Source of the DNA: Cytophagales bacterium
GTDB lineage: Bacteria > Bacteroidota > Bacteroidia > Cytophagales > JAAEPT01
Direction: 5' to 3'
DNA length: 64,000 nt
Assembly (NCBI GenBank): GCA_965267335.1
Contig: OZ253953.1
Span: 3,994,662 to 4,058,661, forward strand
Shown here: positions 1 to 30,144 of the stretch, one piece after another
Layout of the letters: each line of letters starts with the position of its first letter
How positions within the stretch are numbered: the stretch's first letter is position 1
Made by a program: the position numbers and the translations under genes
Notes under the pieces: generated by a model
The model's input: only the letters and a program-made list of their open reading frames with translations
The model's database searches: none
Told to the model about the DNA's origin: nothing

Positions 1-3000
1 TGATTGACACAGTTCTAGTATGCAAAGGTGTCAGACTTCCGGCATCGGGACCTGAAGAGACAGTAATTGTCACGTCCTGAGGTCCATCGGCATCAACCCA
101 AACAGCATCCAGGACAAGATCCTGAAGGACATTGAATTTCAATTTATACCCCGCATTATCAAAATCATCGTTTGTCCAAACATCTCCTCCCGGCTCTGTA
201 GTCGTTGCCGGACCTACGGTGCCATTGAAGAAATCAGCATCTTCAACATAATAGGTTGTGGTTGCAGTGTGATTAGGCGTAGTATAGTTATCCCCACTAT
301 GGATCAAACTACCTCCGGTCGGTGCATCATACCAGTCATAGTTCGAGGGCCCTGTAACCGAGAGATTGAAAACACCACCTGGCTCGCATATAGTATCGTG
401 AGTTGGAACCGCTGCTGCCGAAGTTACTATAGCCTCATCGGTTGAATTTGGACAAGAACCTCCTGAGACCGTAACAGAATAAGTAGCCGGGGTTGTCACC
501 GTTAATTGAGGTGAGGTCTCCCCTCCCATTAGTACCGCATCTTCATACCATGTAAAGTTCAAAGCAGGGTTGGTGAGCCCAGTTGCGAATGTATAAGTAG
601 CTGGTGAACAAAGTTCGGCATCAGGACCAAGGTTTACAGTGAAATTATCGTAAATCTCTACCTCGTCTGTTTGTACGCAACCAAGCGAATCAACTTGTAA
701 ACTATATGTTCCGCTTAGTATTACATTTAAGGTGCTTGATGTTCCTACAGGTGAACCTTCTCTATACCATTGAAAAGATCGATTCGTATGAGGACCGGTT
801 AATCCAGAATTCAATGTGATACTTCCACCCGAAATGCATAAATAATCATCAGCTCCCAAATCAACCGGAGAACAAGGACATTGAACATAGGGACCTCCAG
901 GAGAACCTCCCACACAACCGACAAACCAATTTGCCGGGTCATTGAGATTGCCTGCCGGGTCATCTAATTCGAGCGTAAACCCCATTCCATCAGCACCGGT
1001 TGGCCATGGTGCCACATCATCATAGGTAACATCGGATTTTAAAACTCCAATACTGTTGTACAACCGGAGCCGTTCTCCACCATTACTTAATTTGAAGTTA
1101 AAAGGACCTACCTTGTTTGCTACAGATGGATGGTTTGCAGTGAACATAGAATCATTGCGGAATATGACTAAATACTCATCGGGGTTCAGTACTGTTCCGG
1201 AAGGAATTATAAATTCATTAAAATCATTTCCGTCTTTAAACACCCAACCAGATAAATCAACTGTACCATTACCGTGATTGTAAAGTTCAACCCAATCACC
1301 TGCGTCATATGCATCACTTGAGTTGTAATTAATTTCATTGAAAGTTATCTGACCAATATTCGATGTGCTATTGAAATTAGCCGTAAGAGAGGCATTTTGA
1401 GTAAAAGTTATATCATTACTAACACTTCCTGTTGATAACGACACACCACTTGCTGACCAATTGCTAAACTCGTATCCTTCGTTAGGGTACGCTGTAACCT
1501 CCACCGGACAACCACCAAAATAAACTCCTGACCAAGGATAGGTGTCAGGGATAACCGTACTAATCTTAACAACGCCAGCTCCGGCCGGACTTACATCAAC
1601 AGTTATAGTATATTGACCAGAAACTCCGGAAAGCTGGCCTTCAATGTCATCTCTGGCATAAGCGGGTCGATCATCCATATAATCTTTTATGTGATCCACA
1701 TTACCTGGCCATTGTGCCGCACCCGGCCAGTCAGTCCAGCGGTCATGATGATTAGAAATCTCAGAGGAAATTACGGCTGCAATGGCATCGGCACTGTCTT
1801 TATAATTATCCGGATCAAAAGTTGTATTAATAAGGTCAGCATACCTTTCCGCAAAGTAGCATTTAAAGTCATCGTTGGTCAATAACTTTTTGAGCATAGG
1901 GCTGTGAACATTATCAGTAGCATTGACCACCCGATCCAATTCATCATCTGAAGCCGGATAGCCACCCCACATATTTAACCCAAAATCGGTGTCAAAATAT
2001 ATGTACCTCCATTTATTTCCTGTCTCGGGTGAACTCCAGTACCGAATGTTGTTATGCGGCCAATCTCCGTTTTGGTGGTAGGTCTCAACTGCGAAGTAGT
2101 CAACGAAATTTTCAATGTCCAACATATCTTTTACCTGATCGTAGTTGGCACTATTGGTCATATCATTGTTTTCAACGAAATCCAACAGAGCTGTAAATCC
2201 GTCTCCTGACCCTTGCTTCACATCACCATCAAATTCTAAGAAATTAACATCTTTATGATCTACTCCATGGTTTGCTTCAACGTATTCCGGGTTTACTCTT
2301 TCCCTCATGTTATGTATGCCCCAGTACTCTCCATTAATATAGAGTACAGCAGGTTCATACGCCATGGCATCCATATTATCATTCCCCATCTGCATTCTGT
2401 GGTTTAATCCATCTCTGAACTGGGTATAATTAAAGTCATTACCTGAGTTTCTTAATACCATCTGATCGTGTTCCTGAATATTGGGTTTGTCTTTGAAGAC
2501 GAAGTCAAAGTGGTCTTTACCATATTGATCTCGGGGAATCAAACGAAGGCTTTTCATTGGAAAACCTCTTGACCACCCACCAAATATTTTCACTCCACAA
2601 TCCTGCTCGAAGCCCTGTACATCAGAATCGTTGAAATACTCAATGTGGATTTCTCTTTCCCAATCCTGCCAAAAGTTTGCATCAAAATGAGGAAATGATG
2701 CTTCTCCATTAGGACCAAGCTCATATATTCCTATATCATAGTCGAAAAAGTTATCCGGATGCGTACTGATTGAGATAACAGGGAGGTCATGGTTGTCAAC
2801 AATAAAATAGGAGTTAGTCTCTATTTTGGATTTTTTGGTAATGTAACCTGACCTAAAGCAACCAGCCCGAATTACCCGGGTATCAGGAATACCAATACTA
2901 CCTGAGTAATTTGTAGAGGTAGCAGTAGGCTTACTACCGTCTGTCGTATATTTTACTGTAGATAGACCACTACCACAAGTACAACCTGTAGTTTGTGCAG

Positions 3001-4141
3001 AAGTATAAAATCCCGCGGGGAGGGAGAAAGTCAAAGTATCTTCCCAAATTCCCATATAGCTTGTAGAAGTCGCATTGGATGCTGTTGGTGTAGCAGGGTC
3101 AAGAAAAGCAAATCCTCCGGTACCATTCGGCAAACGCCCGTAAGTAATGTCGTCATGTAATTCTGGTAGCCCTACCTGATCAACCAGTGATGATGATGCA
3201 TCATATAATGAAATAGTTTCTCCATTGTTACTGATTTTAAAATTAGTATGCAGGTAATATGTTCCGGTAGGAGGAGTAAACCATGCCGGAATAGTACTAT
3301 AGTTCACGATTGCCGTTGATACGCCAACTTGAAGCCAGGGTCGGGCAGATAAATCAGTTGAGGCTGATGAAACATTGTGTACTTGAATTGCTAATACGTT
3401 GTTGCCATTAACAATCAGTGGCTTCCATACATTTTTGTCAATTGTATATTCAGCTGGATTCCCCCCGGAATACAGTACCGCCTCATCATTTCCATCCGCA
3501 AAATCATCAAATGCAGGTGGGTTTCCGGAAATATTCTCTCTTGCAATTTCAACCCCGTTTAAATAGGCAACAAAACCATCATCGTAGTCCATGTGAAATA
3601 TTATTTCTTGAATTTCAGCACTATCAACCACATTGAAAGTCCTACGCATATACACGGACTCCGTACCACCTGGGACCACAGTATTATCATCTCCATCACC
3701 CATCCCGATCCCGCCTGGGCCAGAATTCCATGATCCATCATTGAAGCCTATGTCTGTCCAGTCGGAAGCTGGTTCTGAAGTTGGAATCATATATTGCCAG
3801 GTATCATCCTCTTTAACAATGCTTTCCCAGTGATCTATATAATCAACCCTATCCTTGCCAGATGCGAAAATGGTCAGGTACTCTCCTGCCCCAATTGTGA
3901 TATTTGGAAGCACCCAGCTGTTTACCGCCAAAGTAGTGTCTGTAATTTGGTAACCATTCAGGTTCACTGAAGAACCTCCGGCATTGTAGAGTTCGATCCA
4001 ATCTTCATTATCTCCATCGTTATCATAAAGAGAAGTAAAGGTTTCGGAACTGATTTCATTGATAACGACCTGTGCATATACCTTAGTCAGGTACACACTG
4101 CACAACAGCAGAATTAGATAGATTCTTTTCATACGTTTCAT
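1..4141 (-). CDS. CotH kinase-family protein with lamin-tail (LTD) domains and C-terminal Ig-like repeats. Partial: the 3' end runs off the left edge of the window.
   Basis: Absent from the supplied ORF track because its stop lies left of position 1. My reverse-complement translation from ATG 4141 (or 4132) gives MKRMKRIYLILLLCSVYLTKVYAQVVINEISSETFTSLYD. Spot checks stay open in the same frame: 2281-2400 gives RMQMGNDNMDAMAYEPAVLYINGEYWGIHNMRERVNPEY, and 2-70 gives TITVSSGPDAGSLTPLHTRTVSI. These are collinear with the 6688..10206 paralog (QIVINEVSS..., ILFINGQYWGIQNIREKIN). I did not verify every codon. Confidence 0.8.
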   Translation of the reverse strand, partial: MKRMKRIYLILLLCSVYLTKVYAQVVINEISSETFTSLYDNDGDNEDWIELYNAGGSSVNLNGYQITDTTLAVNSWVLPNITIGAGEYLTIFASGKDRVDYIDHWESIVKEDDTWQYMIPTSEPASDWTDIGFNDGSWNSGPGGIGMGDGDDNTVVPGGTESVYMRRTFNVVDSAEIQEIIFHMDYDDGFVAYLNGVEIARENISGNPPAFDDFADGNDEAVLYSGGNPAEYTIDKNVWKPLIVNGNNVLAIQVHNVSSASTDLSARPWLQVGVSTAIVNYSTIPAWFTPPTGTYYLHTNFKISNNGETISLYDASSSLVDQVGLPELHDDITYGRLPNGTGGFAFLDPATPTASNATSTSYMGIWEDTLTFSLPAGFYTSAQTTGCTCGSGLSTVKYTTDGSKPTATSTNYSGSIGIPDTRVIRAGCFRSGYITKKSKIETNSYFIVDNHDLPVISISTHPDNFFDYDIGIYELGPNGEASFPHFDANFWQDWEREIHIEYFNDSDVQGFEQDCGVKIFGGWSRGFPMKSLRLIPRDQYGKDHFDFVFKDKPNIQEHDQMVLRNSGNDFNYTQFRDGLNHRMQMGNDNMDAMAYEPAVLYINGEYWGIHNMRERVNPEYVEANHGVDHKDVNFLEFDGDVKQGSGDGFTALLDFVENNDMTNSANYDQVKDMLDIENFVDYFAVETYHQNGDWPHNNIRYWSSPETGNKWRYIYFDTDFGLNMWGGYPASDDELDRVVNATDNVHSPMLKKLLTNDDFKCYFAERYADLINTTFDPDNYKDSADAIAAVISSEISNHHDRWTDWPGAAQWPGNVDHIKDYMDDRPAYARDDIEGQLSGVSGQYTITVDVSPAGAGVVKISTVIPDTYPWSGVYFGGCPVEVTAYPNEGYEFSNWSASGVSLSTGSVSNDITFTQNASLTANFNSTSNIGQITFNEINYNSSDAYDAGDWVELYNHGNGTVDLSGWVFKDGNDFNEFIIPSGTVLNPDEYLVIFRNDSMFTANHPSVANKVGPFNFKLSNGGERLRLYNSIGVLKSDVTYDDVAPWPTGADGMGFTLELDDPAGNLNDPANWFVGCVGGSPGGPYVQCPCSPVDLGADDYLCISGGSITLNSGLTGPHTNRSFQWYREGSPVGTSSTLNVILSGTYSLQVDSLGCVQTDEVEIYDNFTVNLGPDAELCSPATYTFATGLTNPALNFTWYEDAVLMGGETSPQLTVTTPATYSVTVSGGSCPNSTDEAIVTSAAAVPTHDTICEPGGVFNLSVTGPSNYDWYDAPTGGSLIHSGDNYTTPNHTATTTYYVEDADFFNGTVGPATTTEPGGDVWTNDDFDNAGYKLKFNVLQDLVLDAVWVDADGPQDVTITVSSGPDAGSLTPLHTRTVSI

Positions 4142-4772
4142 CTTCGGTAAGACCCACCAATGCTGTATTGTCGCATCCATCTGTCTTTAGAGAATACGCA
4201 ATTGTATCAGCGACACTAAAATTAAAGTGCCGGGTAGTCTTCTAGGTTAAATCTCAATGATGTGGAATCTTTGAGTAAGGTTAACTCAAATATAATTTAA
4301 TATTAAGAAATTACAAAGCAACTCGTAAGCAGCTTAAATACAACGCAATACAGATCGCATCAACCTCATTTTTTTGCTGATTTATACTTCAGCGGTAGTT
4401 TCAATATGATATCAGTCTATATTCAACAACTTTCATACTAACGCAGAAACGATTAACCCAATCAGAATGAGCAAATTACATGTCTCGGGTTGAGAATAGA
4501 TACCTATAAGTAAAATCCAGGAACAGAATTTGAATATAAATAATTGAATCTTAGCGCCTGAAATTCCGTATATCTAATTCCAATGGATCACCGGTAAGCC
4601 GTCCATAACTTACAACATTAAATAAAAGTAAAACACAGCACCTGTTTAGGAGCTTGTCTGAGGACATTATCAAGATGCACTACTCAAACCTAAACATATT
4701 GCGGTTCCATTGGGGCTGTATTGGAAATAACAAATTTGATAGTATCTCGATGCTGATGTTAAAATATGAGGA

Positions 4773-5336
4773 ATGACAGAACTAGAGAGTTATAAAGATA
4801 CCGTATTGACGCTGTATGATTCAATGGTGTCTAAAAATTTAACCCTTGTATACGAAGGAGAAATCAACCAACATCTGACAAAGGCCTTTTCAGAAATGGC
4901 TGTTTCTAATATGGAATCCAACGAGTCTGACACGGTCAAAAACAGAGTCTTTCATGTGATGATTGAATGCTTGCAGAATATCGCGAAGCATTCGTATAAC
5001 AGTAAAGAAGCTGAGAGAGCTTACAGTGGAAATGGACTCTTTATCATCGGGAATACCGACAATGAATATTTTGTTATCACAGGAAACAGAATACTAAACG
5101 AAAAGGCCGATGTCATCAAAGAAGTCCTTGACAACCTGAATACACTTGATAAGGATGAAATCAAGCAACTTTATAAACAAAAAATTAAAGAATCCCGTCT
5201 TTCGGACAAAGGTGGAGCTGGGCTTGGGCTCATCGATATTGTGAAGAAAACCGGTAATACAATTGAATACTCTCTCCAAAGTATGGAGAACGAGACTTCT
5301 TTCTTAATTCTAATCACTAAAATAAACCGAGAATAA
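4773..5336 (+). CDS. SiaB-family / GHKL-type partner-switch Ser/Thr kinase (RsbW/SpoIIAB-like)
   Basis: 187-aa ORF starting at an ATG. It has an ATP-lid-like motif, DKGGAGLGLIDIVKKTGN. It sits 1 nt upstream of a DUF1987/SiaC-type gene, the canonical SiaB-SiaC arrangement. Confidence 0.6.
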   Translation: MTELESYKDTVLTLYDSMVSKNLTLVYEGEINQHLTKAFSEMAVSNMESNESDTVKNRVFHVMIECLQNIAKHSYNSKEAERAYSGNGLFIIGNTDNEYFVITGNRILNEKADVIKEVLDNLNTLDKDEIKQLYKQKIKESRLSDKGGAGLGLIDIVKKTGNTIEYSLQSMENETSFLILITKINRE

Positions 5337-5337
5337 A

Positions 5338-5724
5338 ATGGAACTATACAAAGTATCTGCAACTGATGAAACCCCAAAGGTTACATTAAACCCGGACACT
5401 GGAATTCTGGAGCTTGAGGGTAAATCCTTACCAGAGAATGTGAGTGTTTTTTATGATCCTATCATGGCCTGGTTGAACGAGTATAGTGCATCACCAGCTA
5501 CCAAGACACTCCTTGAAATGAAACTCAAGTACTTCAATACAGCATCATCAAAAATACTTCTTGATATGCTTATGAAACTAGAAGAAATCAAAACGAACGG
5601 TCATGAAGTTGTCGTCAATTGGCACTACAATGAAAACGATGAAGATATGGAAGAGGCCGGTGATGAATACTCGGATATAGTGGAAGACCTACCCTTTGAG
5701 TTCTTGCCTTATAAACAAGACTAA
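5338..5724 (+). CDS. SiaC-family regulatory phosphoprotein (DUF1987)
   Basis: 128-aa ORF. The N-terminus ATDETPKVTLNPDTGILELEGKSLPENVSVFYDPIMAWLNEY fits the DUF1987 pattern as I recall it. The C-terminus is acidic. Confidence 0.65.
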   Translation: MELYKVSATDETPKVTLNPDTGILELEGKSLPENVSVFYDPIMAWLNEYSASPATKTLLEMKLKYFNTASSKILLDMLMKLEEIKTNGHEVVVNWHYNENDEDMEEAGDEYSDIVEDLPFEFLPYKQD

Positions 5725-5848
5725 GCGAGCTATTTATTGGATCATAGTGCGCCATAAATACCATAACTCACTATGATCCAAATTTTACTTGCTAATTTTT
5801 CGTTTCTTTAATTACCTTTCTGGTACAATTTTGGCTCACTTGTTCAAC

Positions 5849-6244
5849 ATGAAGAGATTCTTAACTGCAATTCTGTTCTTTACAGGAACTTTGACGCTGG
5901 CTCAGTCACCTGATTTCTCCAGCCCTGAAGGAGTTGTAAATACATTCTATAGTGCTGTTCAGTCTCGTAACGTAGAACTCTTATCCCAATGTATTCATCC
6001 CGAGTCAACCCATCGCGAAGCATTGCAATACTACGCGAGGAACACATCGGAGCAACAGATCAAATCTTATGAAGATCGAATAGGAGAGTTTGGTTATATT
6101 GACAGGGTAACACCTCCCAATGAAGATTCCGAAAAGCAATGGACAAAAGTGGAAATTGTTTTTTACAAGACCGGTGGTGAGTCACACACGGTGAGAGTCT
6201 ATGTTACCGAACATGATATGGGATACCGTATTATCTCATTCTAA
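5849..6244 (+). CDS. small secreted protein of unknown function
   Basis: Track ORF 5789..6244. The ATG at 5849 gives a signal peptide, MKRFLTAILFFTGTLTLAQ. I recognise no family motif. Confidence 0.5.
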   Translation: MKRFLTAILFFTGTLTLAQSPDFSSPEGVVNTFYSAVQSRNVELLSQCIHPESTHREALQYYARNTSEQQIKSYEDRIGEFGYIDRVTPPNEDSEKQWTKVEIVFYKTGGESHTVRVYVTEHDMGYRIISF

Positions 6245-6645
6245 GTTCTCCTATTCTATTTGGAACACTAACTTCTATTTTGGTGACGCCCCGTAAAAAA
6301 AATGCCGAATAAATAATTCAGCGCATAGAACAAATCGGTTTCGATTTCCCTAAAATCACCTCTTAAAAGGCTATATCCAACATTTCGATAAGCAATCCTC
6401 CTAGAAAAAATTTACTAAAAATAGTGAGTAAACATCATGAGGTGCACTCGTAAAATATAATAAGAAAACTAAAAACGGAACCTTATATGTTTGACATCAT
6501 AAACCCCGATAGTAATTCAATACTATTTTTTCAACATTGGAAAAAAAGATTCAGAGAGTCAAAATCCATGGTAGAGCAAGCAAGTCGAAAACCAAGAAGA
6601 AAATTAGGCAGGAATATTTAAAATCTAAATAGCTGATTCTTCTAT

Positions 6646-6685
6646 AAGGCCAGTAATCCTCCCTGGAGTGCTGGCCTTTGTTTTT
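6646..6685. terminator. GC-rich hairpin between convergent genes, with a T-tract on the + strand only
   Basis: aaggccag (6646-6653) pairs with ctggcctt (6671-6678), with inner ctcc/ggag pairing, then tgttttt. The hairpin begins 10 nt past the stop of the minus-strand CotH gene. Confidence 0.5.
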
Positions 6686-6687
6686 CG

Positions 6688-6930
6688 CTACAGCACAACA
6701 ATCTTTTGTACGCTCATTTTACCCTCTCCTTTTAAACTGACAGAATATATACCTTTGGGCAAAGAGAATAAAGAAACCTGCTCTAAATAGCCTGCTTCGA
6801 TTCCCTGTAATCGCTTCCTCACTACTGGTACACCACGCGCATCAAGAATCTCCAACAACGATGACTCATACCCTTCACTGTTGATGAGTATATTAATCAT
6901 ACCCTGTGTTGGGTTCGGGAAGACATAAAT
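6688..6930 (-). other. T9SS (Por) C-terminal sorting domain of the CotH protein
   Basis: VFPNPTQG...LEILDARG..V....L......VSLFSLPKGIYSVSLKGEGKMSVQKIVVL matches the usual CTD pattern: FPNP, then beta strands, ending with a hydrophobic tail. Confidence 0.7.
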
Positions 6931-9900
6931 ATCATTGTTATGGGGTTGCTCTTCTTCAAGTGACACAATACAATCCAGACCGTTCATGGAACCTGGGCTA
7001 CCTTTGACACACCTTGCTTCCCAGGAAGTGGACAAACTACCATCATCCGATGGTGTTATTTTTTCCAAAGTATAACCCTGCCCATCTGCAAGAACATCCC
7101 ATGGAGCTTCATCATCAAATAATAGCTGCTCAACAAGATCACCCTTGGCATCATATAGCTCTATCAACTCTCCAGCGTTGCTAAAGCTGAATCCAAGGTT
7201 CCCGATATAGTTGGAAACAGTGGGGTTCACTTGCTTAAACTTTGTTGTATCATTACACACTACAAGGTATTCACCAGAAGCGATCACGGTGCCCTCCGGC
7301 ATCACATAACTATTGTAATCTCTTGAGTCAGATATGGACCAGCCTGAAATATCCAGGTCCACCGAACCATAATTATATAACTCCAACCAGTCATCGGTGT
7401 CAAATATAATAGAAGAGTTGTAGTTAATTTCATTGATTGTTAACTCCAGAGGAACCGAACTGCCAGTAAAAAAGGCCGTAAAGGTTGCATCCTGATCAAC
7501 ATTCAGGGTAATAGACTTGTTCGGGTCAGAACCTGAAATCAGTGGTGCTTCCCACCGGTCAAAGGAATACCCCGGATTGGCTACTGCTGTTATTGTTACA
7601 GGCACACCATCAAAATACACCCCAGTCCAGGGTAAGCTTTCCGGGTAAATGGTATTAATTTTTATATATCCTGCTCCGGGCGGGTTTACCTCCAAAGTTA
7701 TATCCACTTGTTTATTAAGGGAGAACCTTTCCTCAATATGATCACGATGTAATGCAGGACGTTGGTTGATATAATCGCGTAACTCCTGGATATAGTAATC
7801 ATGGGTAAACATATTCCCTCCCCATCGGGCATAATGAATTGGTAATTCATTATCCATTTCGTTCTTTACCTGATCCAGAGTATTATTAAAATAAGTAGGC
7901 AGGTAAATCGTATTCATCAAATCTGCTGAACGATTAATGAAATAGTTGCGATAATCAGGATTCGCCAAAAAAGATGTCATCATCTGAGAATGTGGATCTG
8001 TACTACCATCCATCAGTCGACTGATCATGTTGGAATCCATTGGCAATAAACCCCAAACACCATGAGTGATATCGGTATCATACATAATATACCGTAATTT
8101 GTATTCCCCGGTGCGATGACGCCAAAGCTTTAGGTTATTTTGTGGCCAGTCCCAATTGGACAAAAACAGGTTACACGCGAAATAATCTGCCATAGACTCC
8201 ATATCGAAATACTGACTGTAGTTGTCATAGTTGGATTGATCGGATAGGTCGGAGTTGGTAACCCCCCAATGCAGAATCCAGAAATCACTGGCATCACCTG
8301 CTATAGTTTGTCCCCAGGTATCTATCAAATCAATCTCATCCGAAGGAAAACCTGAGTTATCTTCAATAAAATGATCATTGATTTTTTCTCGAATATTCTG
8401 AATACCCCAATACTGGCCATTTATGAATAAGATTGCTGGCTGAAAACTTTGGTACTCAAAATCAGTGGCTCCTACAATGTTGGATTGATTAGTTCCGTCC
8501 CTCAGATTGGAATTCAAAAAGTCATTCCCGGAGTTTCTCAGCACAATCTGTTTAAAACTGGAGTTCTTCTTATCCTCAAAGAATTTATAATCAATCCGAT
8601 TTTTACCATACATACTTTTGGCCTTTATTCTCAAACTTTTTTGATCCTGAGTCCGTGACCAACCACCAAAGATTTGGGTACCCGCATCTTGTTCAAACTG
8701 TTCGGTTCCTGTATTATCAAAAAATTCGATATGAACAGGCTTTTCCCAATCCATCCAATAGTTGGCTCCGGTATGGGGCATCGGTGCTGTCCAGCCAGGA
8801 CCATCAACATAAATCCCTTCGTTGTAATCCCAAAAATTCTCCGGGTTGGTGGTTAATGAAATTACTGGCAAATCCTTGTCTTGGTTTATGAAATAGGTGT
8901 TTGTCACAACCTCTCCCGGCAAGAAGCCAGAAGAAAAACATGCGGCACGGACAGGTGTAGTGGTGTCGATTGCAATAGGGCCAGTGTATAATGTGGAACT
9001 CGAAGTTGGTAGTGACCCATCAATTGTGTATCTGATTTCCGAACTACCGGTAATACTTACCGTTTGCGAAGAATTATAAAAGCCAGCTGGCAGATCAAAT
9101 GTGAGCACATCAGGACAGTAGCCAAAATACCCAGTAGAGGCATTGTTTGTAGCCCCGGGCGTGCTGACATCAAAGATTACCCAATTCGTATTTCCGTCAG
9201 GTTGGCGCCCGGCAGAGTGATCCAGTTGCATTGCTCCTGTATTGACCTGATCAATTATGGTATTGCTCTCATCTAGTAACGAAAGCTGTTCACCATCCTT
9301 ATCTAATTTGAAATTAGTATGCAGAATACTTGTCGCTCCAGAAAACCACGATGGCGTATTATAGAAGTAACTGCTCCCTGATGAGATCCCAAACGAAAGA
9401 AATGGGCGGACAGTCATATCCGATGAAAACGCGTTTGCATTATGGGCTTGAATGGCCAGGACATTGGTCCCCGTCACTAGTGTGTTTTCAATAATCGAAT
9501 CGTGAATCAAATACCTTGAAGGATCACCACCGGAGTACATCTGTGCTTCATGATCAATAGTTGTATAAGTATCATAAGTTGGTGGTTGCCCGGTTATATT
9601 GTTTGATCGAGCTATTTCGACCCCGTTTAGGTATGCGACAAAACCATCGTCAATATCAATATCTAATATTGCAGAGGAAATATCATTTATGTCCGGGATT
9701 ACAAATTCCTTCCTAATGTAGACCGAAGAAATGGGATTACTGAGAATTGTATTATCATCACCATCACCATATCCAAAACCTCCAATTGCCTGAGCTATCC
9801 CGCTATCATCGAATGATAAATCATTCCAATTCGAAGGTGGTTCAGCGCTTGGGACCTCGTATCTCCAGATGGCCGTATCATTAATCGCGGTCTCCCAGTG

Positions 9901-10206
9901 ATTAACAACCACGGTTCGATTTTTTCCTGAAGCAAATATGAGCAAATAATCTCCGGAAGGGATCACAACAGACGGAAGGGTAAATGTATCACTACTTCCA
10001 TCAATCAACTTATAGTTCGACAAATCAACACTTGTTGCACCTGCATTATATAACTCAATCCAGTCCTCAGCATCTCCATCCTCATCAATCAATCCATTAC
10101 CTGAGTCGTTGAACGAACTGACTTCATTAATAACTATCTGTCCCCGAGTAATAGTACTCCACGATAGAAAAATCAAAAAAAAGAATATTGGTCTGGCGGT
10201 CTTCAA
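6688..10206 (-). CDS. LTD-CotH-LTD kinase-family protein with a T9SS C-terminal sorting domain
   Basis: 1172-aa ORF with a TTG start and a signal peptide. LTD motifs are present at both ends (IVINEVSS...DWIELYNAG and INEINYNSS...DWLELYNYG). The CotH core contains PAILFINGQYWGIQNIREK and WDWPQNNLKLW. The last 80 aa (IYVFPNPTQGMINILINS...SVQKIVVL) look like a Por/T9SS type-A sorting domain. Confidence 0.9.
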   Translation of the reverse strand: MKTARPIFFFLIFLSWSTITRGQIVINEVSSFNDSGNGLIDEDGDAEDWIELYNAGATSVDLSNYKLIDGSSDTFTLPSVVIPSGDYLLIFASGKNRTVVVNHWETAINDTAIWRYEVPSAEPPSNWNDLSFDDSGIAQAIGGFGYGDGDDNTILSNPISSVYIRKEFVIPDINDISSAILDIDIDDGFVAYLNGVEIARSNNITGQPPTYDTYTTIDHEAQMYSGGDPSRYLIHDSIIENTLVTGTNVLAIQAHNANAFSSDMTVRPFLSFGISSGSSYFYNTPSWFSGATSILHTNFKLDKDGEQLSLLDESNTIIDQVNTGAMQLDHSAGRQPDGNTNWVIFDVSTPGATNNASTGYFGYCPDVLTFDLPAGFYNSSQTVSITGSSEIRYTIDGSLPTSSSTLYTGPIAIDTTTPVRAACFSSGFLPGEVVTNTYFINQDKDLPVISLTTNPENFWDYNEGIYVDGPGWTAPMPHTGANYWMDWEKPVHIEFFDNTGTEQFEQDAGTQIFGGWSRTQDQKSLRIKAKSMYGKNRIDYKFFEDKKNSSFKQIVLRNSGNDFLNSNLRDGTNQSNIVGATDFEYQSFQPAILFINGQYWGIQNIREKINDHFIEDNSGFPSDEIDLIDTWGQTIAGDASDFWILHWGVTNSDLSDQSNYDNYSQYFDMESMADYFACNLFLSNWDWPQNNLKLWRHRTGEYKLRYIMYDTDITHGVWGLLPMDSNMISRLMDGSTDPHSQMMTSFLANPDYRNYFINRSADLMNTIYLPTYFNNTLDQVKNEMDNELPIHYARWGGNMFTHDYYIQELRDYINQRPALHRDHIEERFSLNKQVDITLEVNPPGAGYIKINTIYPESLPWTGVYFDGVPVTITAVANPGYSFDRWEAPLISGSDPNKSITLNVDQDATFTAFFTGSSVPLELTINEINYNSSIIFDTDDWLELYNYGSVDLDISGWSISDSRDYNSYVMPEGTVIASGEYLVVCNDTTKFKQVNPTVSNYIGNLGFSFSNAGELIELYDAKGDLVEQLLFDDEAPWDVLADGQGYTLEKITPSDDGSLSTSWEARCVKGSPGSMNGLDCIVSLEEEQPHNNDIYVFPNPTQGMINILINSEGYESSLLEILDARGVPVVRKRLQGIEAGYLEQVSLFSLPKGIYSVSLKGEGKMSVQKIVVL

Positions 10207-10272
10207 AAATTAACTGAATGTAAACAAGAGGTTAAATTTACATAAAAAATACAACAAAAACTAAGCTAAGTC

Positions 10273-10917
10273 CTATAAACCAACCTCATAGGCCACACTA
10301 AATATAGTAGAGTTTTCAAGTGGGGCTTCGTTCAAGGCTATTTGTCTCAGAATAGAAAATTTCAGTTCGCGCTTACCTTTGAGGTCATATGAGAAGTCCC
10401 AGCCTATCCTTACTCTGTTCAGATAGTTTGGTTTATAATGCATCAGGTAAAAAACCTCAGAATATATCCCAGGGGTAAGCTTTTTAAGGAAATTGTTCTT
10501 GAGGTTGTATTCAAAACCGGCTCTCAGACGCAGCCGACTGTATGGAATTTCATTGGTTTCGTAGTCCCTTTGCCAGCGCAGTCTGGATTCGAATCTTGTT
10601 CTTCTAAAAACCTTATTATCATAGTACAAACTTGCTGTAATTCGGTTTCCCTGGGTTCTCTCATTCCATGAGTGCCTGTAGTCAAGTCCTGTTTTCCAGT
10701 CTTTTCCTAGCTTAAAACGTATTCCGGGAGAAAGAAGAAATCTCTTGAAGGATGACAAATTTTCATCCAGCCGATATTGAGATTCAAGGCTCCATTTCAC
10801 CTTTTTTACCAATTTATCCTCAACTTCCAGGCCAGTCCATAGCTCTACATCGTTGGTCTGTGCATATACGCCAGAGCCTATGCAGGATAAAATAAGCAGA
10901 AGGATAAAGCGCCTCAT
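10273..10917 (-). CDS. DUF2490-type predicted outer-membrane beta-barrel protein
   Basis: 214-aa ORF with signal peptide MRRFILLLILSCIGSGVYAQ. It has alternating amphipathic beta-strand patterning rich in Y/R/W, and the N-terminal WTGLEVEDKL...W.L.SQYRL segment typical of DUF2490 as I recall it. Confidence 0.65.
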   Translation of the reverse strand: MRRFILLLILSCIGSGVYAQTNDVELWTGLEVEDKLVKKVKWSLESQYRLDENLSSFKRFLLSPGIRFKLGKDWKTGLDYRHSWNERTQGNRITASLYYDNKVFRRTRFESRLRWQRDYETNEIPYSRLRLRAGFEYNLKNNFLKKLTPGIYSEVFYLMHYKPNYLNRVRIGWDFSYDLKGKRELKFSILRQIALNEAPLENSTIFSVAYEVGL

Positions 10918-10927
10918 AGCACTAAAA

Positions 10928-11569
10928 TCACTTACCTTCTTCGTAATAGTACACCTTGATCTGAGCAGTATCTCTCAGGTAATCGATCCGTGTCACTTCA
11001 ATATTTTGAATCTTTAACCCTGTTCTTTCTTCCAGATCTGCCAATAGTTCAGTTTTTCTCTGGGGCTTGATTAGATCAATTTTTTCATAAGTTATGAGCT
11101 TATAGGCATAATGTGACTTCAGCCAGATTCTTTCCAAAACGAAAGTCATACCTGCAATCGCAACATTGGCAAAAAGTAACTCAGAGCCTGTGATCTTTTC
11201 AGAAAGCGCATTAATAACAGCTACTGTAATACTGACAAAGAGAAAGGTCATTTCCTTAATCGGTATTTGTTCCGTTCGGTATCTGAGAATACTAAACACT
11301 GCAAACAAACCAAATGCGAAGCCAATTTTCAACTTAACACTGCTCAACAGGAAGGTGACGAAGAAAATAATCAGGTTGAAAACAAAGAATGTAAACAAGT
11401 ACTCTCTATTCTTATTTATCGGATAATAGATCAATCTGATTATGACAAAGGCAAAAATGAAGTTGATTCCAAACTTCACCATCAGTTCGACAAAGGAGTC
11501 CTTGTCGAACCAATCCTCTGTAAACATTTCCCATCCTGTGTTTTTCAATAAAATATTTAGTGTGCTCAT
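10928..11569 (-). CDS. DUF4956-type multi-pass membrane protein
   Basis: 213-aa ORF with about 4 hydrophobic helices. It has a FAVFSILRYRTEQIPIKEM motif and a soluble C-terminal domain. Its ATG overlaps the TGA of the upstream VTC gene (ATGA at 11566-11569). Confidence 0.65.
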   Translation of the reverse strand: MSTLNILLKNTGWEMFTEDWFDKDSFVELMVKFGINFIFAFVIIRLIYYPINKNREYLFTFFVFNLIIFFVTFLLSSVKLKIGFAFGLFAVFSILRYRTEQIPIKEMTFLFVSITVAVINALSEKITGSELLFANVAIAGMTFVLERIWLKSHYAYKLITYEKIDLIKPQRKTELLADLEERTGLKIQNIEVTRIDYLRDTAQIKVYYYEEGK

Positions 11570-12381
11570 CGTTGCTCTGAAGTAATCTTTTTTAGTTGTC
11601 GAAATTTCGGTTTGAATCTGTTCTTTTTAACCTCATCATACACTGAGGCTATACCAATACAATATTTGCTAAACCCAAATTCCGAAATTTTCATTTCTCT
11701 CAGTAATTCCGAAATTACAGAGTTGGTTGAAAATTTATCTTGTTTTAACTCAATAATTGCTATACTGTGAAGGTCCTTCTGCTCTCCGTTACCCTCGAAA
11801 CCAAGGTTTATGTCTACCGTCACTCTTTCTGTTAAATTCCTATCCGTCAGAGTAATTCGCTTGTAATAGACCCATAATTTTGCCTCGAGGCTGGATTCGT
11901 CTATATCGGTTTCAGCAATTTCGTTTATAAAATCAATACTCTCTTCATCGAGGTCAATTTCAATCTCATCACGCCCTACTCTTTTTTTAATCGTTCTACC
12001 CCGGTTATTTTTGAATTTGATCTCAAAAAAAGAATTATCCGTTTCAACGTAGGTTCTGCTCCTGAACTTATAGCGGTTTAGTTTACCGTTGTGGTGAGAA
12101 GTATAAAGGTCGAAATCAGGTGTATCATAATACAATGTCTTGTATTGCATGATTCTGTTACCCTCAATATCCATTACATAGTAATCTTCCTGAAGTTTTT
12201 TTAGAACCTCCGGCAGAGTGCTCAAGGCAAACACATGTTTGGTGTCCTTTCGGTTCTGAAGCATTACCTGATTCATCCCTTCCAGGCCGATAGGATCAAA
12301 TCCCTCTACAACTGTCTGTATTTTAGATGTTAGGTCCAATAAGTTATTTGAGGTTGATGATATTGAACTGCGGCACAACAA
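11566..12381 (-). CDS. VTC-domain (triphosphate-tunnel, polyphosphate-polymerase-like) protein
   Basis: 271-aa ORF. It has basic beta-strand motifs typical of VTC/CYTH tunnels: YKFRSRTYVETDNSFFEIKFKNNRGRTIKKR, then AIIELKQD. The start is uncertain: TTG at 12381 overlaps the upstream gene, TTG at 12339 lies just past that gene's stop, and the first ATG is at 12276. Confidence 0.7.
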   Translation of the reverse strand: MLCRSSISSTSNNLLDLTSKIQTVVEGFDPIGLEGMNQVMLQNRKDTKHVFALSTLPEVLKKLQEDYYVMDIEGNRIMQYKTLYYDTPDFDLYTSHHNGKLNRYKFRSRTYVETDNSFFEIKFKNNRGRTIKKRVGRDEIEIDLDEESIDFINEIAETDIDESSLEAKLWVYYKRITLTDRNLTERVTVDINLGFEGNGEQKDLHSIAIIELKQDKFSTNSVISELLREMKISEFGFSKYCIGIASVYDEVKKNRFKPKFRQLKKITSEQR

Positions 12382-12742
12382 CCTCTTGTTTTTTCTCGTC
12401 TATTTTGACTTCTCGTAGGATCACTGCCTGCTCCGATGGACAAGTATCGCAATCGGTATATACGAATACGGTGTAATCTCCTTTTGTAAGATATTTGAAC
12501 TGGTAAGTCCCGTCATAATGAGTTCGTACCTCATCATCAAAGATACTATTGTCTCCATAGACGATATAAACACGCTCCTCCATACCATCGTATTCGGCAA
12601 GAGTGTCACCAGTTAAGGCTGATACATCATACACATATACAGAACCGGTAATCCGGGCTTTTCCCCCTTCTCCTTCTTCTTTTTCACAGGAGATCAAAGT
12701 AAAGCCAAAAAAGAAAATAAGTAAGGTTTTAAGATTCGGCAT
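12344..12742 (-). CDS. small lipoprotein, beta-sandwich-like (carboxypeptidase-regulatory-like guess)
   Basis: The ATG at 12742 gives MPNLKTLLIFFFGFTLISCEKE, a lipobox with Cys. The remainder is beta-rich (ITGSVYVYD..., YQFKYLTKGDYTVFVY). It is the first gene of the co-directional cluster. Confidence 0.55.
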   Translation of the reverse strand: MPNLKTLLIFFFGFTLISCEKEEGEGGKARITGSVYVYDVSALTGDTLAEYDGMEERVYIVYGDNSIFDDEVRTHYDGTYQFKYLTKGDYTVFVYTDCDTCPSEQAVILREVKIDEKKQEVVVPQFNIINLK

Positions 12743-12878
12743 ATCAAATGATTGATCGCACAAATATAATAATAACTTAATGTTAAATTAATGCAAAGCG
12801 ATTAGAAGAGCGGTTTACGTAGCAAAAATTTGCCTTTTAAGCATGATTTTTTCACTGCGTTAATACCATAAATCACAA

Positions 12879-13817
12879 CTAATTTTCACCCACTGACGCA
12901 AGCAGGTAAAGTACCGCCATACGTACCGCGACTCCATTCTCAACCTGATCGAGAATTATTGAATGCCCTGAGTCAGCCACATCACTGGTAATCTCCACAC
13001 CTCGATTGATAGGTCCGGGGTGCATTACAACTATTTCTTTATTCAGTGACTCCAGGAGTTCTTTATTGATACCATAATACATGGAATACTCTCGCAGTGA
13101 TGGGAAAAACTGTACTTCATCGTGTTGCCGTTCTAATTGAATTCTCAAAACGTTCGCAACATCACACCATTCCAATGCTTTCTTTACATGATGAAATACT
13201 TTGACTCCTATCTGGTCAATATATTTGGGAATCAAGGTTACAGGGCCACATACTGCCACTTCTGCCCCAAGTTTCTGTAAGGCAAAAATATTTGACAAGG
13301 CTACTCTGGAGTGTAAAATATCCCCGAATATGCAAACTTTTTTTCCTCCTACTTCACCCAACCTTTCCTTTATGGAAAAAGTGTCCAACAAGGCCTGAGT
13401 CGGATGTTCATGAGTACCATCCCCTGCGTTAATGATATTTGCATCGATATGTCTGGAAAGAAAATGTGGTGCACCGACACTACTATGTCGCATCACAACC
13501 ATATCGACTTTCATTGCAAGAATATTATTAACAGTATCTAGCAGTGTTTCTCCTTTTTTCACGGAACTTGATCCCGAAGAGAAATTCACAACATCAGCTG
13601 AAAGTCTTTTTTCTGCTAATTCGAATGATATTCTGGTTCTGGTAGAGTTCTCAAAAAAGACATTGGCAATCGTGATATCACGTAGTGAAGGTACTTTTTT
13701 AATCGGGCGATTGATTACTTCCTTAAACTGTTCAGCTGTTTCAAATATCAGTTGGATATCCTCTTTCGTCAGATCCTTAATTCCCAGTAAGTGCTTAGTA
13801 CTTAACTGTCCCATCAC
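12879..13817 (-). CDS. pyrB: aspartate carbamoyltransferase catalytic subunit
   Basis: 312 aa. Motifs: [30 protein letters not shown]. Confidence 0.95.
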
Positions 13818-14365
13818 TATGACTCATTATGTGTTATCAACCAGACATTGTCATTTGTTCCGTCATCGCCCTTCCATTCCACTATTACCTTCTGGGACAA
13901 CTGACTATTTATCGATTTTCCAATATAGTTCGGTTCAATTGGAAGTTCTCTGGTATATTTTCTATCAATAAGAACGAGTAATTCTACACTTCTCGGTCTT
14001 CCGTAAGCAGTGAGAGCATCCAATGCAGCTCTGACTGACCTACCTGTAAAGAGAACATCATCAACGATAATGACATTTTTGTCCTCAATTAGAAATGGAA
14101 TATTAGTATTGTTTGCTTTAACCGGCTCATCCCGTCTCCTGAAATCATCCCTATGAAATGTGATATCCAAGGCACCCAACTTTGGAGACTCAACTCCATG
14201 CTTGGTTAGTTGCTCCTTCAAGCGCTTGGCCAATAGTGTTCCTCTTGGCTGTAGGCCTATTAAAACCGATTCCTGAAAATTATTGTGGGATTCAATTAGT
14301 TCCTGACATAACCTGTCAATGGTTATGTTCAGTAGTTGGTCATCCAGTATGAGCTTCTTTTGCAT
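13817..14365 (-). CDS. pyrR: bifunctional pyr operon regulator / uracil phosphoribosyltransferase
   Basis: PRPP-binding motif [22 protein letters not shown] prefer the ATG at 14365 (MQKKLILDD) to the TTG at 14377 used in the track. The gene abuts pyrB. Confidence 0.9.
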
Positions 14366-14401
14366 ACTGAGATACAAAGTTATACAGATAATTAAATATT
14401 C

Positions 14402-15811
14402 TTATTCAAAGTCGATTTTATTGCATCGAACTATCTTTTTATTTCCCTTATCCTTTACATTTTCTATTGTCCAGGATATATAATAGTTGCTATACCAATG
14501 CTCGATGTTTGTATGTGCGAGACTCACACCAGTATCTGGAACCTCTTCAGAAACAACAATTTCGTTCTGATTTGGAATTACCTGAAACACAGTCTTTCCA
14601 TCATTAATATATACCAGTGCCTGGTGATCTTTGATTGAAGTCAAAGTAATCATATCCCGCATATCGTCAATTCGTACCTTATCGATATCAAATGTATTCG
14701 ACCACATCAAATCTCCTTCCGTGCTAATCGCACTTAAAAGTCCGTGCGTATATTGCCACCCGTCAAATACTTTGTAATAAGTAGTTATTGGAAGCCCTGC
14801 GGCATCAAAAAAAGTGTGTGACTCTCGCCTATAGGTTGGGTAGTAAGCCTCTGCAACCATCAGATACTCCTCACCTCGTTTTACCAAAGTATGTGGATTG
14901 ATAAGGTATGGCAATGAAACCGCTTCTCCAACGGCCGAATCCCCTCCAGACATATATTTATCAAATGTTTCCAACCCTGAAAAGGCATAGTATTTATTAA
15001 AAAGTTGCTTTTTGCCTTTAAAACCTGACACAAAAAATCCGCGCTCACCTACTTCACCTTCATCAAGATAGGTTCCGATCACAAAAACCAGATCATTATT
15101 AATTTCTGATATTTTACCATTTATTAAGCGCTTTCCCTCATCCGGACGCACTCGGTAAGACTCCTCTTCCTTTCCCATATCTGAGTATACCTTTACTAAC
15201 AAGTCCCTGTGATCTCTGGTTTTGTTGACACTCACCACATTGACCTTTTTCAACTCTGGAAAAACATCGACTCGTGTTACTTTTGGATACCCCCTGAATG
15301 CCGTGCTTAATGCACGCACTTTACCTGTTTCTAAGTCCGCATGTATTAAAGTAGGGCTGTTGATTAATCTGGCATCAATAAAGAGCTTATCATTGATGGC
15401 TTTAAAGTCCACAATATCAAACCTGGCAAAGGTTTCAACATCTTTGGTTTTGAGTTCCCCGGTGGAGACGTCAATTTTCAGTACCTTCAACCGCTTCTTT
15501 TTGTACCGGTTAAAAATCAGGTACAAATTACCTTGCCCATAGTAATAGGCCTCGTAATCATACTTTCCATCAACTGTTATGTTCTTGTTCCATTTTGGAT
15601 TAAACAGCTCATCATACAGGCTGAAAGTCCAGGTTTGCTCCTTCACTCTCCGCTGAGTTATTCTATTGGAAAAAATGAGAACTCCTTGATGTTCCACTGG
15701 TATTAGTTGATGATGCCGGGTTGGTTCCAGTTCAATTTGTGCAGAATCCCTAAGGTACTGGCCGTATCCAGGCAGCGAAATTAACATCATTATGATCACA
15801 CATAACCTCAT
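14402..15811 (-). CDS. secreted protein of unknown function
   Basis: 469-aa ORF with signal peptide MRLCVIIMMLISLPGYGQ. Its ATG overlaps the bcp stop (ATGA). No family recognised. Confidence 0.6.
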   Translation of the reverse strand: MRLCVIIMMLISLPGYGQYLRDSAQIELEPTRHHQLIPVEHQGVLIFSNRITQRRVKEQTWTFSLYDELFNPKWNKNITVDGKYDYEAYYYGQGNLYLIFNRYKKKRLKVLKIDVSTGELKTKDVETFARFDIVDFKAINDKLFIDARLINSPTLIHADLETGKVRALSTAFRGYPKVTRVDVFPELKKVNVVSVNKTRDHRDLLVKVYSDMGKEEESYRVRPDEGKRLINGKISEINNDLVFVIGTYLDEGEVGERGFFVSGFKGKKQLFNKYYAFSGLETFDKYMSGGDSAVGEAVSLPYLINPHTLVKRGEEYLMVAEAYYPTYRRESHTFFDAAGLPITTYYKVFDGWQYTHGLLSAISTEGDLMWSNTFDIDKVRIDDMRDMITLTSIKDHQALVYINDGKTVFQVIPNQNEIVVSEEVPDTGVSLAHTNIEHWYSNYYISWTIENVKDKGNKKIVRCNKIDFE

Positions 15812-30133: not shown

Positions 30134-30144
30134 TTCTAATAATT

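Follow-up and report, generated by a model that had tools for sequence, protein, structure and literature searches.

The 64,000-nt stretch of a Cytophagales bacterium analysed here (the window) contains a module of five genes, all on the minus strand (Table 1). They code for a small lipoprotein, a protein of the VTC family, an inner-membrane protein with the domain DUF4956, a predicted outer-membrane (OM) beta-barrel of the family DUF2490, and a large protein in which a CotH domain is flanked by lamin-tail domains (LTD) and followed by a sorting domain of the type IX secretion system (T9SS). An earlier note on this DNA had taken these genes for an undescribed system, in which a split bacterial counterpart of the eukaryotic polymerase Vtc4 makes and exports polyphosphate (polyP) for an extracellular CotH enzyme. 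The comparison covers 82 loci, of which 80 come from species genomes in GTDB, the other two being an earlier locus and the window itself; frequencies of neighbouring genes refer, where indicated, to the 40 Bacteroidota loci with at least 6 kb of sequence upstream and at least 7 kb downstream (full-flank loci).

Organization of the locus

The domain calls of the earlier note (VTC, DUF4956, DUF2490, LTD-CotH-LTD and T9SS sorting domain) all hold in the Pfam search, and the five co-directional genes lie at the coordinates and with the spacing it had given: the VTC stop and the ATG of the DUF4956 gene overlap by 4 nt (ATGA), DUF4956 and DUF2490 are separated by 10 nt, and a gap of 66 nt precedes the CotH gene. 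Curated NCBIfam names were sought for the VTC, DUF4956, DUF2490 and lipoprotein families, and none was found.

Concerning the VTC gene, translation most likely starts at the TTG at 12339 rather than at the longest-ORF (open reading frame) start at 12381, because the resulting protein of 257 aa equals a database protein (P0001), this start lies 4 nt past the stop codon of the lipoprotein gene, and the homologues share the N-terminal helix. The 38-nt overlap with the lipoprotein ORF is therefore a product of choosing the longest ORF.

A promoter element of the Bacteroidota -7 type precedes the lipoprotein gene. It is a match to the consensus only, given a background of about one TAnnTTTG per kb when both strands are counted; the 66 nt that separate DUF2490 from the CotH gene contain no TAnnTTTG. 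The stem-loop behind the CotH gene folds as RNA with -17.2 kcal/mol (z -2.4 versus shuffled sequences) and has no T-run, such that its role as terminator of the five-gene unit is suggestive. A scan for sigma-70 promoters and intrinsic terminators, which is ill-suited to Bacteroidota, stayed at the level of shuffled sequence (23 promoter-like elements versus 25 expected, 7 terminator-like elements versus 5.5). The tight spacing, the -7 box before the first gene only and the hairpin after the last one would fit a single transcription unit, both signals being at consensus level only.

Table 1. Features of the module and CotH paralogs in the window
Feature	Position (nt)	Strand	Length and remarks
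Small lipoprotein ORF	12344-12763; ATG at 12742 (gene 12344..12742)	-	132 aa; first in unit
VTC protein	11566-12381 (longest ORF); likely gene 11566..12339	-	271 aa (longest ORF); 257 aa (likely gene)
DUF4956 inner-membrane protein	10928-11569	-	213 aa
DUF2490 predicted OM beta-barrel	10273-10917	-	214 aa
LTD-CotH-LTD protein with T9SS sorting domain	6688-10206	-	1172 aa
Bacteroidota-type -7 promoter element TATATTTG	12761..12768	-	18 nt 5' of lipoprotein ATG; TTTG upstream at 12797
Stem-loop AAGGCCAG...CTGGCCTT	6646..6678	-	begins 10 nt past CotH stop; candidate terminator of unit
Second LTD-CotH-LTD paralog	1..4180	-	runs past window start; outside operon, three plus-strand genes between
Marginal CotH relative	25856-28825	-	989 aa; 24.2 bits versus cutoff 23.8; weak right-handed beta-helix region

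The VTC protein

The VTC protein matches its Pfam profile (PF09359) over positions 1-235 of 235 (E 1.2e-28, 100.7 bits versus a cutoff of 23), with no CYTH match listed, and carries the NCBI name 'polyphosphate polymerase domain-containing protein'. It consists of this single domain and has no SPX domain, transmembrane segment or signal peptide. An AlphaFold2 model based on an alignment of 22 sequences reached a pLDDT (predicted local distance difference test) of 91.6 and a pTM (predicted template modelling score) of 0.88. When this model was compared with the PDB by Foldseek, ranks 1-13 were all occupied by yeast Vtc4, Vtc3 and Vtc2, led by the Vtc4 entries 3g3r and 8i6v (E to 5.7e-11, TM ~0.6), and Vtc4 structures ranked above the hydrolytic triphosphate tunnel metalloenzymes (TTMs) YgiF and ThTPase; AtTTM3 was matched as well. 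By sequence, the VTC profile found Vtc2 as sole match in the PDB (E 0.0055). The earlier note's view of this ORF as Vtc4-like is borne out by the full-length profile match and by the modelled fold, an eight-stranded beta-tunnel to which Vtc4 is closest.

In a cryo-EM study of the VTC complex, K200, R264, R266, K281, R361, K458, S457, Y359 and E426 of Vtc4 bind triphosphate and Mn, with E426 chelating Mn2+; mutation of eight triphosphate-binding residues reduces cellular polyP, and K458 is the sole one of these residues that is altered in the non-catalytic Vtc2 and Vtc3. The sequence of Vtc4 189-481, checked to be identical to PDB 3g3q and 8i6v, was aligned to the bacterial profile by hhalign (local, low mact) and independently by MAFFT; the hhalign probability is low (26%) with this single-sequence template, and the two mappings agree. 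Numbered by the 257-aa protein (plus 14 for the 271-aa longest ORF), the counterparts of K200, R264, R266, K281, Y359, R361, E426, S457 and K458 in the window protein are K34, R93, R95, K108, Y159, R161, E197, S224 and K225, respectively. All nine tunnel residues, whose state the earlier note had left to be checked, are thus identical to those of Vtc4, the equivalent of K458 included. Eight of the nine are invariant in the 22 aligned homologues, and Y159 is kept in the consensus. Strand beta1 reads R-x-D-x-K and so resembles the R-x-T-x-K of Vtc4, unlike E-x-E-x-K, the motif of CYTH hydrolases. Judged by sequence and model, the protein is an enzyme of the Vtc4 tunnel type that keeps its tunnel residues, and it looks competent as a polymerase.

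The family is large: a profile search returned 8,291 VTC cluster representatives (50% identity) at E <=1e-3, more distant VTC-domain proteins included, and 2,289 at 1e-30, and in the GTDB species genomes the presence of relatives was confirmed at 569 or more sites. Each of the best 150 representatives is a stand-alone protein, with lengths of about 234-322 aa.

DUF4956, the constant partner

DUF4956 (Pfam E 1.9e-54) adjoins VTC in 80 of the 82 loci, and in every one of these its nearest in-frame start is situated between -50 and +53 nt relative to the VTC stop; it is present in 39 of the 40 full-flank loci. The two genes form an obligate, tightly coupled pair; the conservation of their neighbourhood, likewise flagged for checking by the earlier note, is seen at nearly every locus. 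The pair was found in at least six bacterial phyla and in one archaeon, where it stands on a Methanoperedens contig without the other module genes. Among the top matches, DUF4956 is better conserved than VTC (50-76% versus 42-65% identity) and exhibits the invariant motif G-F-A-F-G-L-F-A...L-R-Y-R-T-E.

The AlphaFold2 model of DUF4956 consists of five transmembrane helices and a C-terminal beta-alpha-beta-beta domain of ACT-like type, with a pLDDT of 69 overall, about 65 in the transmembrane region and about 85-88 in the C-terminal domain. A fold search of the PDB with this model yielded nothing below E 0.06, the matches covering only the ACT-like domain, and neither Pfam nor the fold search revealed similarity to the membrane subunits of VTC. 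Fusions of VTC with DUF4956, as a sign of physical coupling, were found neither among the best 120 matches of either family nor among the 150 best representatives. Of the split Vtc4 claimed by the earlier note, the catalytic half is backed by fold and residues, whereas the membrane half is an analogy only, DUF4956 being unrelated to the membrane domain of Vtc1/3/4.

On Aminobacter megaplasmids (Alphaproteobacteria) the order of the pair is reversed, DUF4956 preceding VTC. On plasmid pMET1 of Aminobacter sp. NyZ550 (L087, 6409-8721) it is preceded by an S8 peptidase and a pair of extracytoplasmic function (ECF) sigma and anti-sigma genes and the gene after it encodes an 'esterase-like activity of phytase family protein', a phosphate-related neighbour. 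B. thetaiotaomicron carries at least the DUF4956-DUF2490 part (BT3498-99); in the literature on BT3496-3500, only one transcriptome table was found.

Envelope proteins of the Bacteroidota version

DUF2490 (PF10677, E 1.3e-23) is found in 37 of the 40 full-flank loci. The window protein has a Sec signal peptide ending VYA-Q and a mature part of about 195 aa with a pI of 9.7 (family median 9.5), and the family exhibits an alternating hydrophobic/polar pattern with conserved Arg, Asp/Glu and Tyr. A profile search returned 13 near relatives, and two DUF2490 homologues also contain PF13505 (OMP_b-brl). Against the PDB, the best match of the profile was the KdgM porin, at a marginal E of 0.018, and the other weak matches (FadL, OmpG, intimin) are all OM barrels as well. 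TCDB lists DUF2490 as a putative porin family (TC 1.B.81), and according to a 2026 preprint, AlphaFold models of DUF2490 proteins are OM barrels, many of them with a buried lumenal salt-bridge or charge network. The family is thus similar to the anion-specific OM barrels KdgM and NanC in small size, basic charge, signal peptide and strand pattern, whereas the buried network suggests, unlike in these porins, a closed lumen. The predicted OM barrel of the earlier note stands, as a conserved member of the module; the passage of polyP through it is the weakest link of that note's proposal, in view of the marginal KdgM match and the buried network.

The first gene encodes a lipoprotein, as the earlier note had it: the lipobox LISC is present, together with a C-x4-GEGG motif found throughout the family. 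The protein is acidic (pI 4.4; family median 5.1). Members of its family occur in 55 of the 82 loci, every time upstream of VTC and on the same strand, and in 30 of the 40 full-flank loci. Weak Pfam matches (SdrD_B, CarboxypepD_reg, fn3_3) and profile matches to the Ig-like domains of NOMO and SdrD point to a putative beta-sandwich of the transthyretin/CarboxypepD_reg-like type.

Between the lipoprotein and VTC genes, 53 related loci (26 of the 40 full-flank loci) possess a gene for a secreted, lysine-rich protein of about 187 aa with MORN-variant-like repeats, about 20% Lys plus Arg and a family pI of about 9.1 (e.g., L066, 3908-4471, plus strand). A homologue was sought across the whole window and not found. 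This protein is a candidate periplasmic polyanion binder. DUF2490, the lipoprotein and the lysine-rich protein belong to the modules of the diderm Bacteroidota only and are missing from the versions in Firmicutes, Deinococcus and Chloroflexi, which argues that the product of the module leaves the cytoplasm.

In 16-18 related loci, many of them Flavobacteriales-like, ispF (YgbB), porV and porU (Peptidase_C25, T9SS) follow in convergent orientation right after DUF2490 or DUF4956 (e.g., L028, 12330-18249; L050; L023; L079). This may reflect synteny within a clade or a link to the T9SS.

The CotH protein and its link to the module

The 1172-aa protein begins with MKTARPIFFFLIFLSWSTITRGQ, judged by eye to be a signal peptide, followed by an LTD, an unassigned domain (residues ~130-370), CHB_HEX_C_1/Fn3_assoc, CotH (PF08757, E 8.3e-30, residues 511-818), Flg_new_2, a second LTD (E 2e-34 for the LTD matches) and the T9SS type-A sorting domain Por_Secre_tail at residues 1095-1171 (PF18962, E 7.6e-11; NCBIfam TIGR04183, E 2.9e-11). 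Searched by phmmer against the PDB, the single CotH domain sequence had no match; a profile of 19 sequences matched the CotH of B. cereus (5jd9) at E 2.8e-37. The catalytic loop D686-x4-N691 and the metal-binding D710 correspond to D228 and D251 of B. subtilis CotH, and D686, N691 and D710 are kept in 17-19 of the 19 aligned module-linked CotH domains. Of the CotH catalytic residues, again left to be checked by the earlier note, the aspartates D686 and D710 are intact.

Outside the module, the earlier note had seen two more CotH paralogs in the window, and both are real. The one at the window start has the full architecture (CotH E 2.8e-42, two LTDs, CHB_HEX_C_1, Flg_new_2 and Ig_7), with the catalytic motifs NGDWPHNN and YFDTD present. 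In the marginal one at 25856-28825, the catalytic N-x-D-x4-5-N motif is missing, and judging from its sequence this protein is perhaps a CotH relative that is degenerate or has no catalytic function; its gene is situated directly downstream of a thrA-thrB-thrC-like operon (28829-33527) on the same strand.

The closest relative of the window module (L082, VTC 65% identical) has the same five-gene order, with a CotH protein of 1172 aa of the same architecture in the same position. In most other Bacteroidota with a CotH gene, it lies upstream of the lipoprotein. Within 7 kb of the module, 19 of the 40 full-flank loci encode a protein of the CotH/LTD family, whose position and architecture vary. 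A carbohydrate-binding beta-helix protein of the Cthe_2159 family (PF14262) takes the place of CotH in five of the 40 (L001, L027, L033, L037 and L046; Saccharicrinis and a Bacteroidales metagenome-assembled genome), its gene being situated right after DUF2490 in four of them and between DUF2490 and VTC in L037. Neither of the two is found within 7 kb in 16 of the 40 loci, and some modules stand alone.

Outside Bacteroidota, CotH genes adjoin the pair in Spirochaetales, Caldilineaceae and Deinococcus; on a plasmid of Deinococcus taeanensis, the CotH gene precedes it. Together with the cases in Firmicutes and Actinobacteria known from the literature, the link of CotH to the VTC-DUF4956 pair spans six phyla. 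Every module-linked CotH protein examined (from Bacteroidota, Deinococcota, Spirochaetota and Chloroflexota) bears a signal peptide or a lipobox. The inclusion of CotH in the module by the earlier note agrees with this association across phyla and with the secretion of the proteins, but not with the varying occurrence within Bacteroidota.

In some Cytophagales and Chitinophagales, LTD proteins without CotH follow VTC-DUF4956 (L002, 11628-12899, plus strand; L067, 11786-14725, plus strand, i.e., 3489..6428 from the VTC start), and the lamin-tail domain may have a link of its own to the module.

Comparison with known systems

In bacteria, PPK1 and PPK2 are credited with the synthesis of polyP, and the combined polymerase and translocase VTC is regarded as an invention of eukaryotes; a review from 2023 covered the distribution of VTC domains in eukaryotes only. 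With the yeast VTC complex (Vtc4/Vtc3 or Vtc2/Vtc1), the window protein has in common the Pfam catalytic family, the tunnel fold and the identical residues for polyP synthesis, and, by analogy, the logic of coupled synthesis and translocation may be shared, the catalytic domain being tied to a multi-pass membrane protein in both. There are fundamental differences, however: the yeast proteins possess an SPX sensor of inositol pyrophosphates and a fused domain of three transmembrane segments, whereas the VTC protein of the window is a separate polypeptide with neither; the membrane subunits are of Vtc1 type in yeast, whereas DUF4956 with its five transmembrane helices and ACT-like domain is unrelated to them; and yeast VTC delivers to the vacuole lumen, whereas the bacterial version would deliver to the periplasm or the cell surface.

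Closest in gene content is a set from Gram-positive bacteria. Next to operons of the type pelDEA(DA)FG, cotH, a poly-phosphate polymerase gene, DUF4956 and DUF4832 form a contiguous accessory set without assigned function (bioRxiv 10.1101/768473), and the pel-linked CotH module is reported from streptococci, clostridia and bifidobacteria (bioRxiv 10.1101/768473; 10.1101/2024.04.20.589940). In S. intermedius, the products of SIR_1594-1592 are a CotH that is secreted and has its catalytic residues, a tunnel protein like VTC, and a DUF4956 protein whose C-terminus is described as ACT-like, in agreement with the model above (bioRxiv 10.1101/2024.04.20.589940). The CotH, VTC-like and DUF4956 families are common to this set and the window; pel and DUF4832 genes were sought in the neighbourhood of the window module and among the recurrent Bacteroidota neighbours, and none was found. 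Unlike the pel set, the Bacteroidota module includes the lipoprotein, the DUF2490 barrel and usually the lysine-rich protein, and its CotH in the window is a large, LTD-flanked T9SS cargo.

A further example is the locus NELoc-2 of C. perfringens (CP4_0460-0465, described in 2010), in which VTC-domain genes are each followed by a gene for a cytoplasmic-membrane protein of about 225 aa named 'tubulin/FtsZ', and then by CotH; no function was assigned. Unlike in the window, the pair is duplicated there and lies in a pathogenicity-associated locus of a Gram-positive without OM components. Going by the Pfam description of DUF4956, the 'tubulin/FtsZ' proteins are presumably members of this family. 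The Ser/Thr kinase CotH of the Bacillus spore coat (5JD9/5JDA) resembles the window CotH in profile, catalytic Asp, downstream Asn and metal-binding Asp; the window protein differs in being secreted by Sec and T9SS, in its flanking LTDs and its carbohydrate-associated modules, and in belonging to a Bacteroidota organism that does not form spores.

The term 'undescribed system' of the earlier note hence applies in part: the association of CotH, VTC and DUF4956 was published for Gram-positives in 2010, 2019/2020 and 2024, but no function was assigned there, and a literature search for a functional test of the VTC-DUF4956 module found none. From its sequences, the module appears to combine a polymerase of the VTC type with a membrane partner of unrelated kind, and these publications anticipate it in part. 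New here are the case made for catalytic competence from single residues, with the equivalent of K458 among them, the Bacteroidota version, which has the lipoprotein, the lysine-rich protein and the DUF2490 barrel, the alternative Cthe_2159 partners, and the phyletic breadth, which includes an archaeon.

Possible function and alternative explanations

We propose the following mechanism. The tunnel enzyme would dock on DUF4956 at the cytoplasmic face of the inner membrane, perhaps at the basic RYRTE loop and the ACT-like domain, and would polymerise polyP from nucleoside triphosphate, as in Vtc4, while an oligomer of DUF4956 would thread the growing chain to the extracytoplasmic side. In Bacteroidota, polyP would be received or held in the envelope by the basic DUF2490 barrel and the lipoprotein, joined in most relatives by the lysine-rich repeat protein. 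The T9SS-exported LTD-CotH-LTD protein would act at the cell surface, with polyP as phosphoryl donor, or as ligand or scaffold for the modification of surface proteins or polysaccharides. This reading draws on the domain identities, the catalytic competence judged by residues, the localisation signals, and the conserved linkage of VTC with DUF4956 and, across phyla, with CotH. What we infer from these is the synthesis of polyP, its translocation by DUF4956, the role of DUF2490 as a pore and not an anchor, and above all the use of polyP by CotH. Taken as a whole, namely that a Vtc4-type polymerase and DUF4956 place polyP outside the cytoplasm, where envelope proteins handle the product and a secreted CotH/LTD protein acts on or with it, the proposal is quite possible, though we place it slightly short of probable. 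Its most far-reaching form, in which the module is a third prokaryotic route to polyP with export via DUF4956, and envelope polyP is phosphoryl source or cofactor of secreted CotH for an ATP-independent extracellular phosphorylation of polymers of the matrix or the surface, assisted by OM and periplasmic components in Bacteroidota, appears distinctly unlikely to us.

Several points weigh against this proposal. A conduit for polyP is something we only infer for DUF4956, which could be just an anchor or regulator: it is not homologous to the DUF202-type channel of Vtc1/3/4, the model of its transmembrane part is poor, and it has no fold relative. The buried charge network fits a closed DUF2490 barrel better than a pore, as far as models can tell, and the conserved Arg, Glu and Tyr of the family may belong to this network instead of forming a ladder that binds phosphate. 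Being acidic, the lipoprotein is an improbable binder of polyP. CotH joins the core facultatively, and its role does not belong to the core as such. The CotH characterised by Nguyen and colleagues in 2016 is said to use ATP, and we know of no enzyme of the protein-kinase fold that uses polyP. For the S. intermedius module, finally, its authors suggested that polyP may stay in the cytoplasm (bioRxiv 10.1101/2024.04.20.589940).

This last suggestion leads to an alternative in which the polymerase is membrane-tethered but intracellular: polyP would remain cytoplasmic, DUF4956 would serve as anchor or regulator with the ACT-like domain as ligand sensor, and the envelope genes and CotH would be co-regulated neighbours with surface or biofilm functions. 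The intact catalytic residues of VTC suit it, as do the confidently modelled ACT-like domain, typical of small-molecule regulation, the absence of a recognisable channel fold in DUF4956, the possibly closed DUF2490 barrel, and the recurrence of partner-switching and ECF-sigma regulators near modules. However, it leaves unexplained why CotH proteins with signal peptides are linked to the pair in six phyla and why three envelope proteins lie in the same tight operon of diderm Bacteroidota; furthermore, eukaryotic VTC couples synthesis to translocation and so avoids free cytosolic polyP. We regard this alternative as rather unlikely. About equally improbable in our view is a different chemistry of the tunnel enzyme, which might transfer phosphate, pyrophosphate or short oligophosphate from a nucleoside triphosphate to a membrane acceptor bound or flipped by DUF4956, or act as a triphosphatase, in the service of phospho-modification of surface glycans or matrix. 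The reactions of the TTM superfamily on triphosphates do vary (YgiF, ThTPase, AtTTM3), and several neighbours have a connection to carbohydrates or phosphate: the Gram-positive genes directly adjoin exopolysaccharide operons of the pel type and a DUF4832 gene, Cthe_2159 can replace CotH in Bacteroidota, the CotH protein bears CHB_HEX_C_1 and Fn3_assoc, and a phytase-like esterase stands beside the pair in Aminobacter. The residue set, by contrast, is exactly that of the polymerase Vtc4, including the lysine that sets it apart from Vtc2/3, and Vtc4 structures outrank the hydrolases in the fold search; moreover, the neighbourhoods in Bacteroidota lack any conserved gene for a glycosyltransferase or a polysaccharide synthase, and the pair also occurs alone, as in Methanoperedens.

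A chance adjacency or local synteny, with CotH as an unrelated T9SS cargo gene, might be suspected from the many modules without CotH, from other T9SS cargo genes and porU/porV near the module in some clades, and from the position of the window module directly after the clearly unrelated pyrR-pyrB. It is very improbable, though, given the frequencies of VTC-DUF4956 adjacency (80/82) and of DUF2490 (37/40) and the occurrence of CotH beside the pair in independent arrangements (upstream, downstream, with differing architectures) in six phyla, whereas a few-copy family would be expected in roughly 1% of 14-kb windows, by an estimate of our own that was not computed. For the core pair, chance adjacency is excluded.

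The complete conservation of the Vtc4 catalytic machinery in a large prokaryotic family challenges the view of PPK1 and PPK2 as sole bacterial polyP synthases. If the pair makes and exports polyP, the origin of envelope and extracellular polyP would be explained, secreted CotH kinases would have a plausible energy source, and the finding would be relevant to how the eukaryotic VTC complex arose in evolution. In Gram-positives, the module is situated in biofilm (pel) and virulence-associated (NELoc-2) loci. It is readily testable, at least for its DUF4956-DUF2490 part in the genetically tractable B. thetaiotaomicron.

Neighbouring genes

A PADLOC scan for anti-phage genes gave no matches, and an anti-phage defence system was dropped as an identity of the module on account of this.

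Directly upstream of the module, a pyrR-like phosphoribosyltransferase gene and pyrB (aspartate carbamoyltransferase) are situated on the same strand (12879-14377, minus). This synteny is kept in Cytophagales metagenome-assembled genomes (L002, 8398-9898) and in the closest relative (L082, 7896-9381), without an obvious functional link. A conserved ORF of 469 aa without Pfam match (14402-15811) precedes pyrR-pyrB in the window, as it does in L082.

Between the two LTD-CotH paralogs, three genes lie on the opposite strand (4773-5336, 5338-5724 and 5789-6244, all plus). They comprise a partner-switching pair, consisting of a HATPase-like protein of DUF6272 (SiaB-like) and a phosphoprotein of the SiaC family (Pfam SiaC E 2.9e-42; NCBIfam SiaC under cutoff), followed by an unassigned ORF of 151 aa. 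Near VTC modules of seven related loci, SpoIIE/PP2C (SiaA-like) genes were found, which hints at a regulation of biofilm type.

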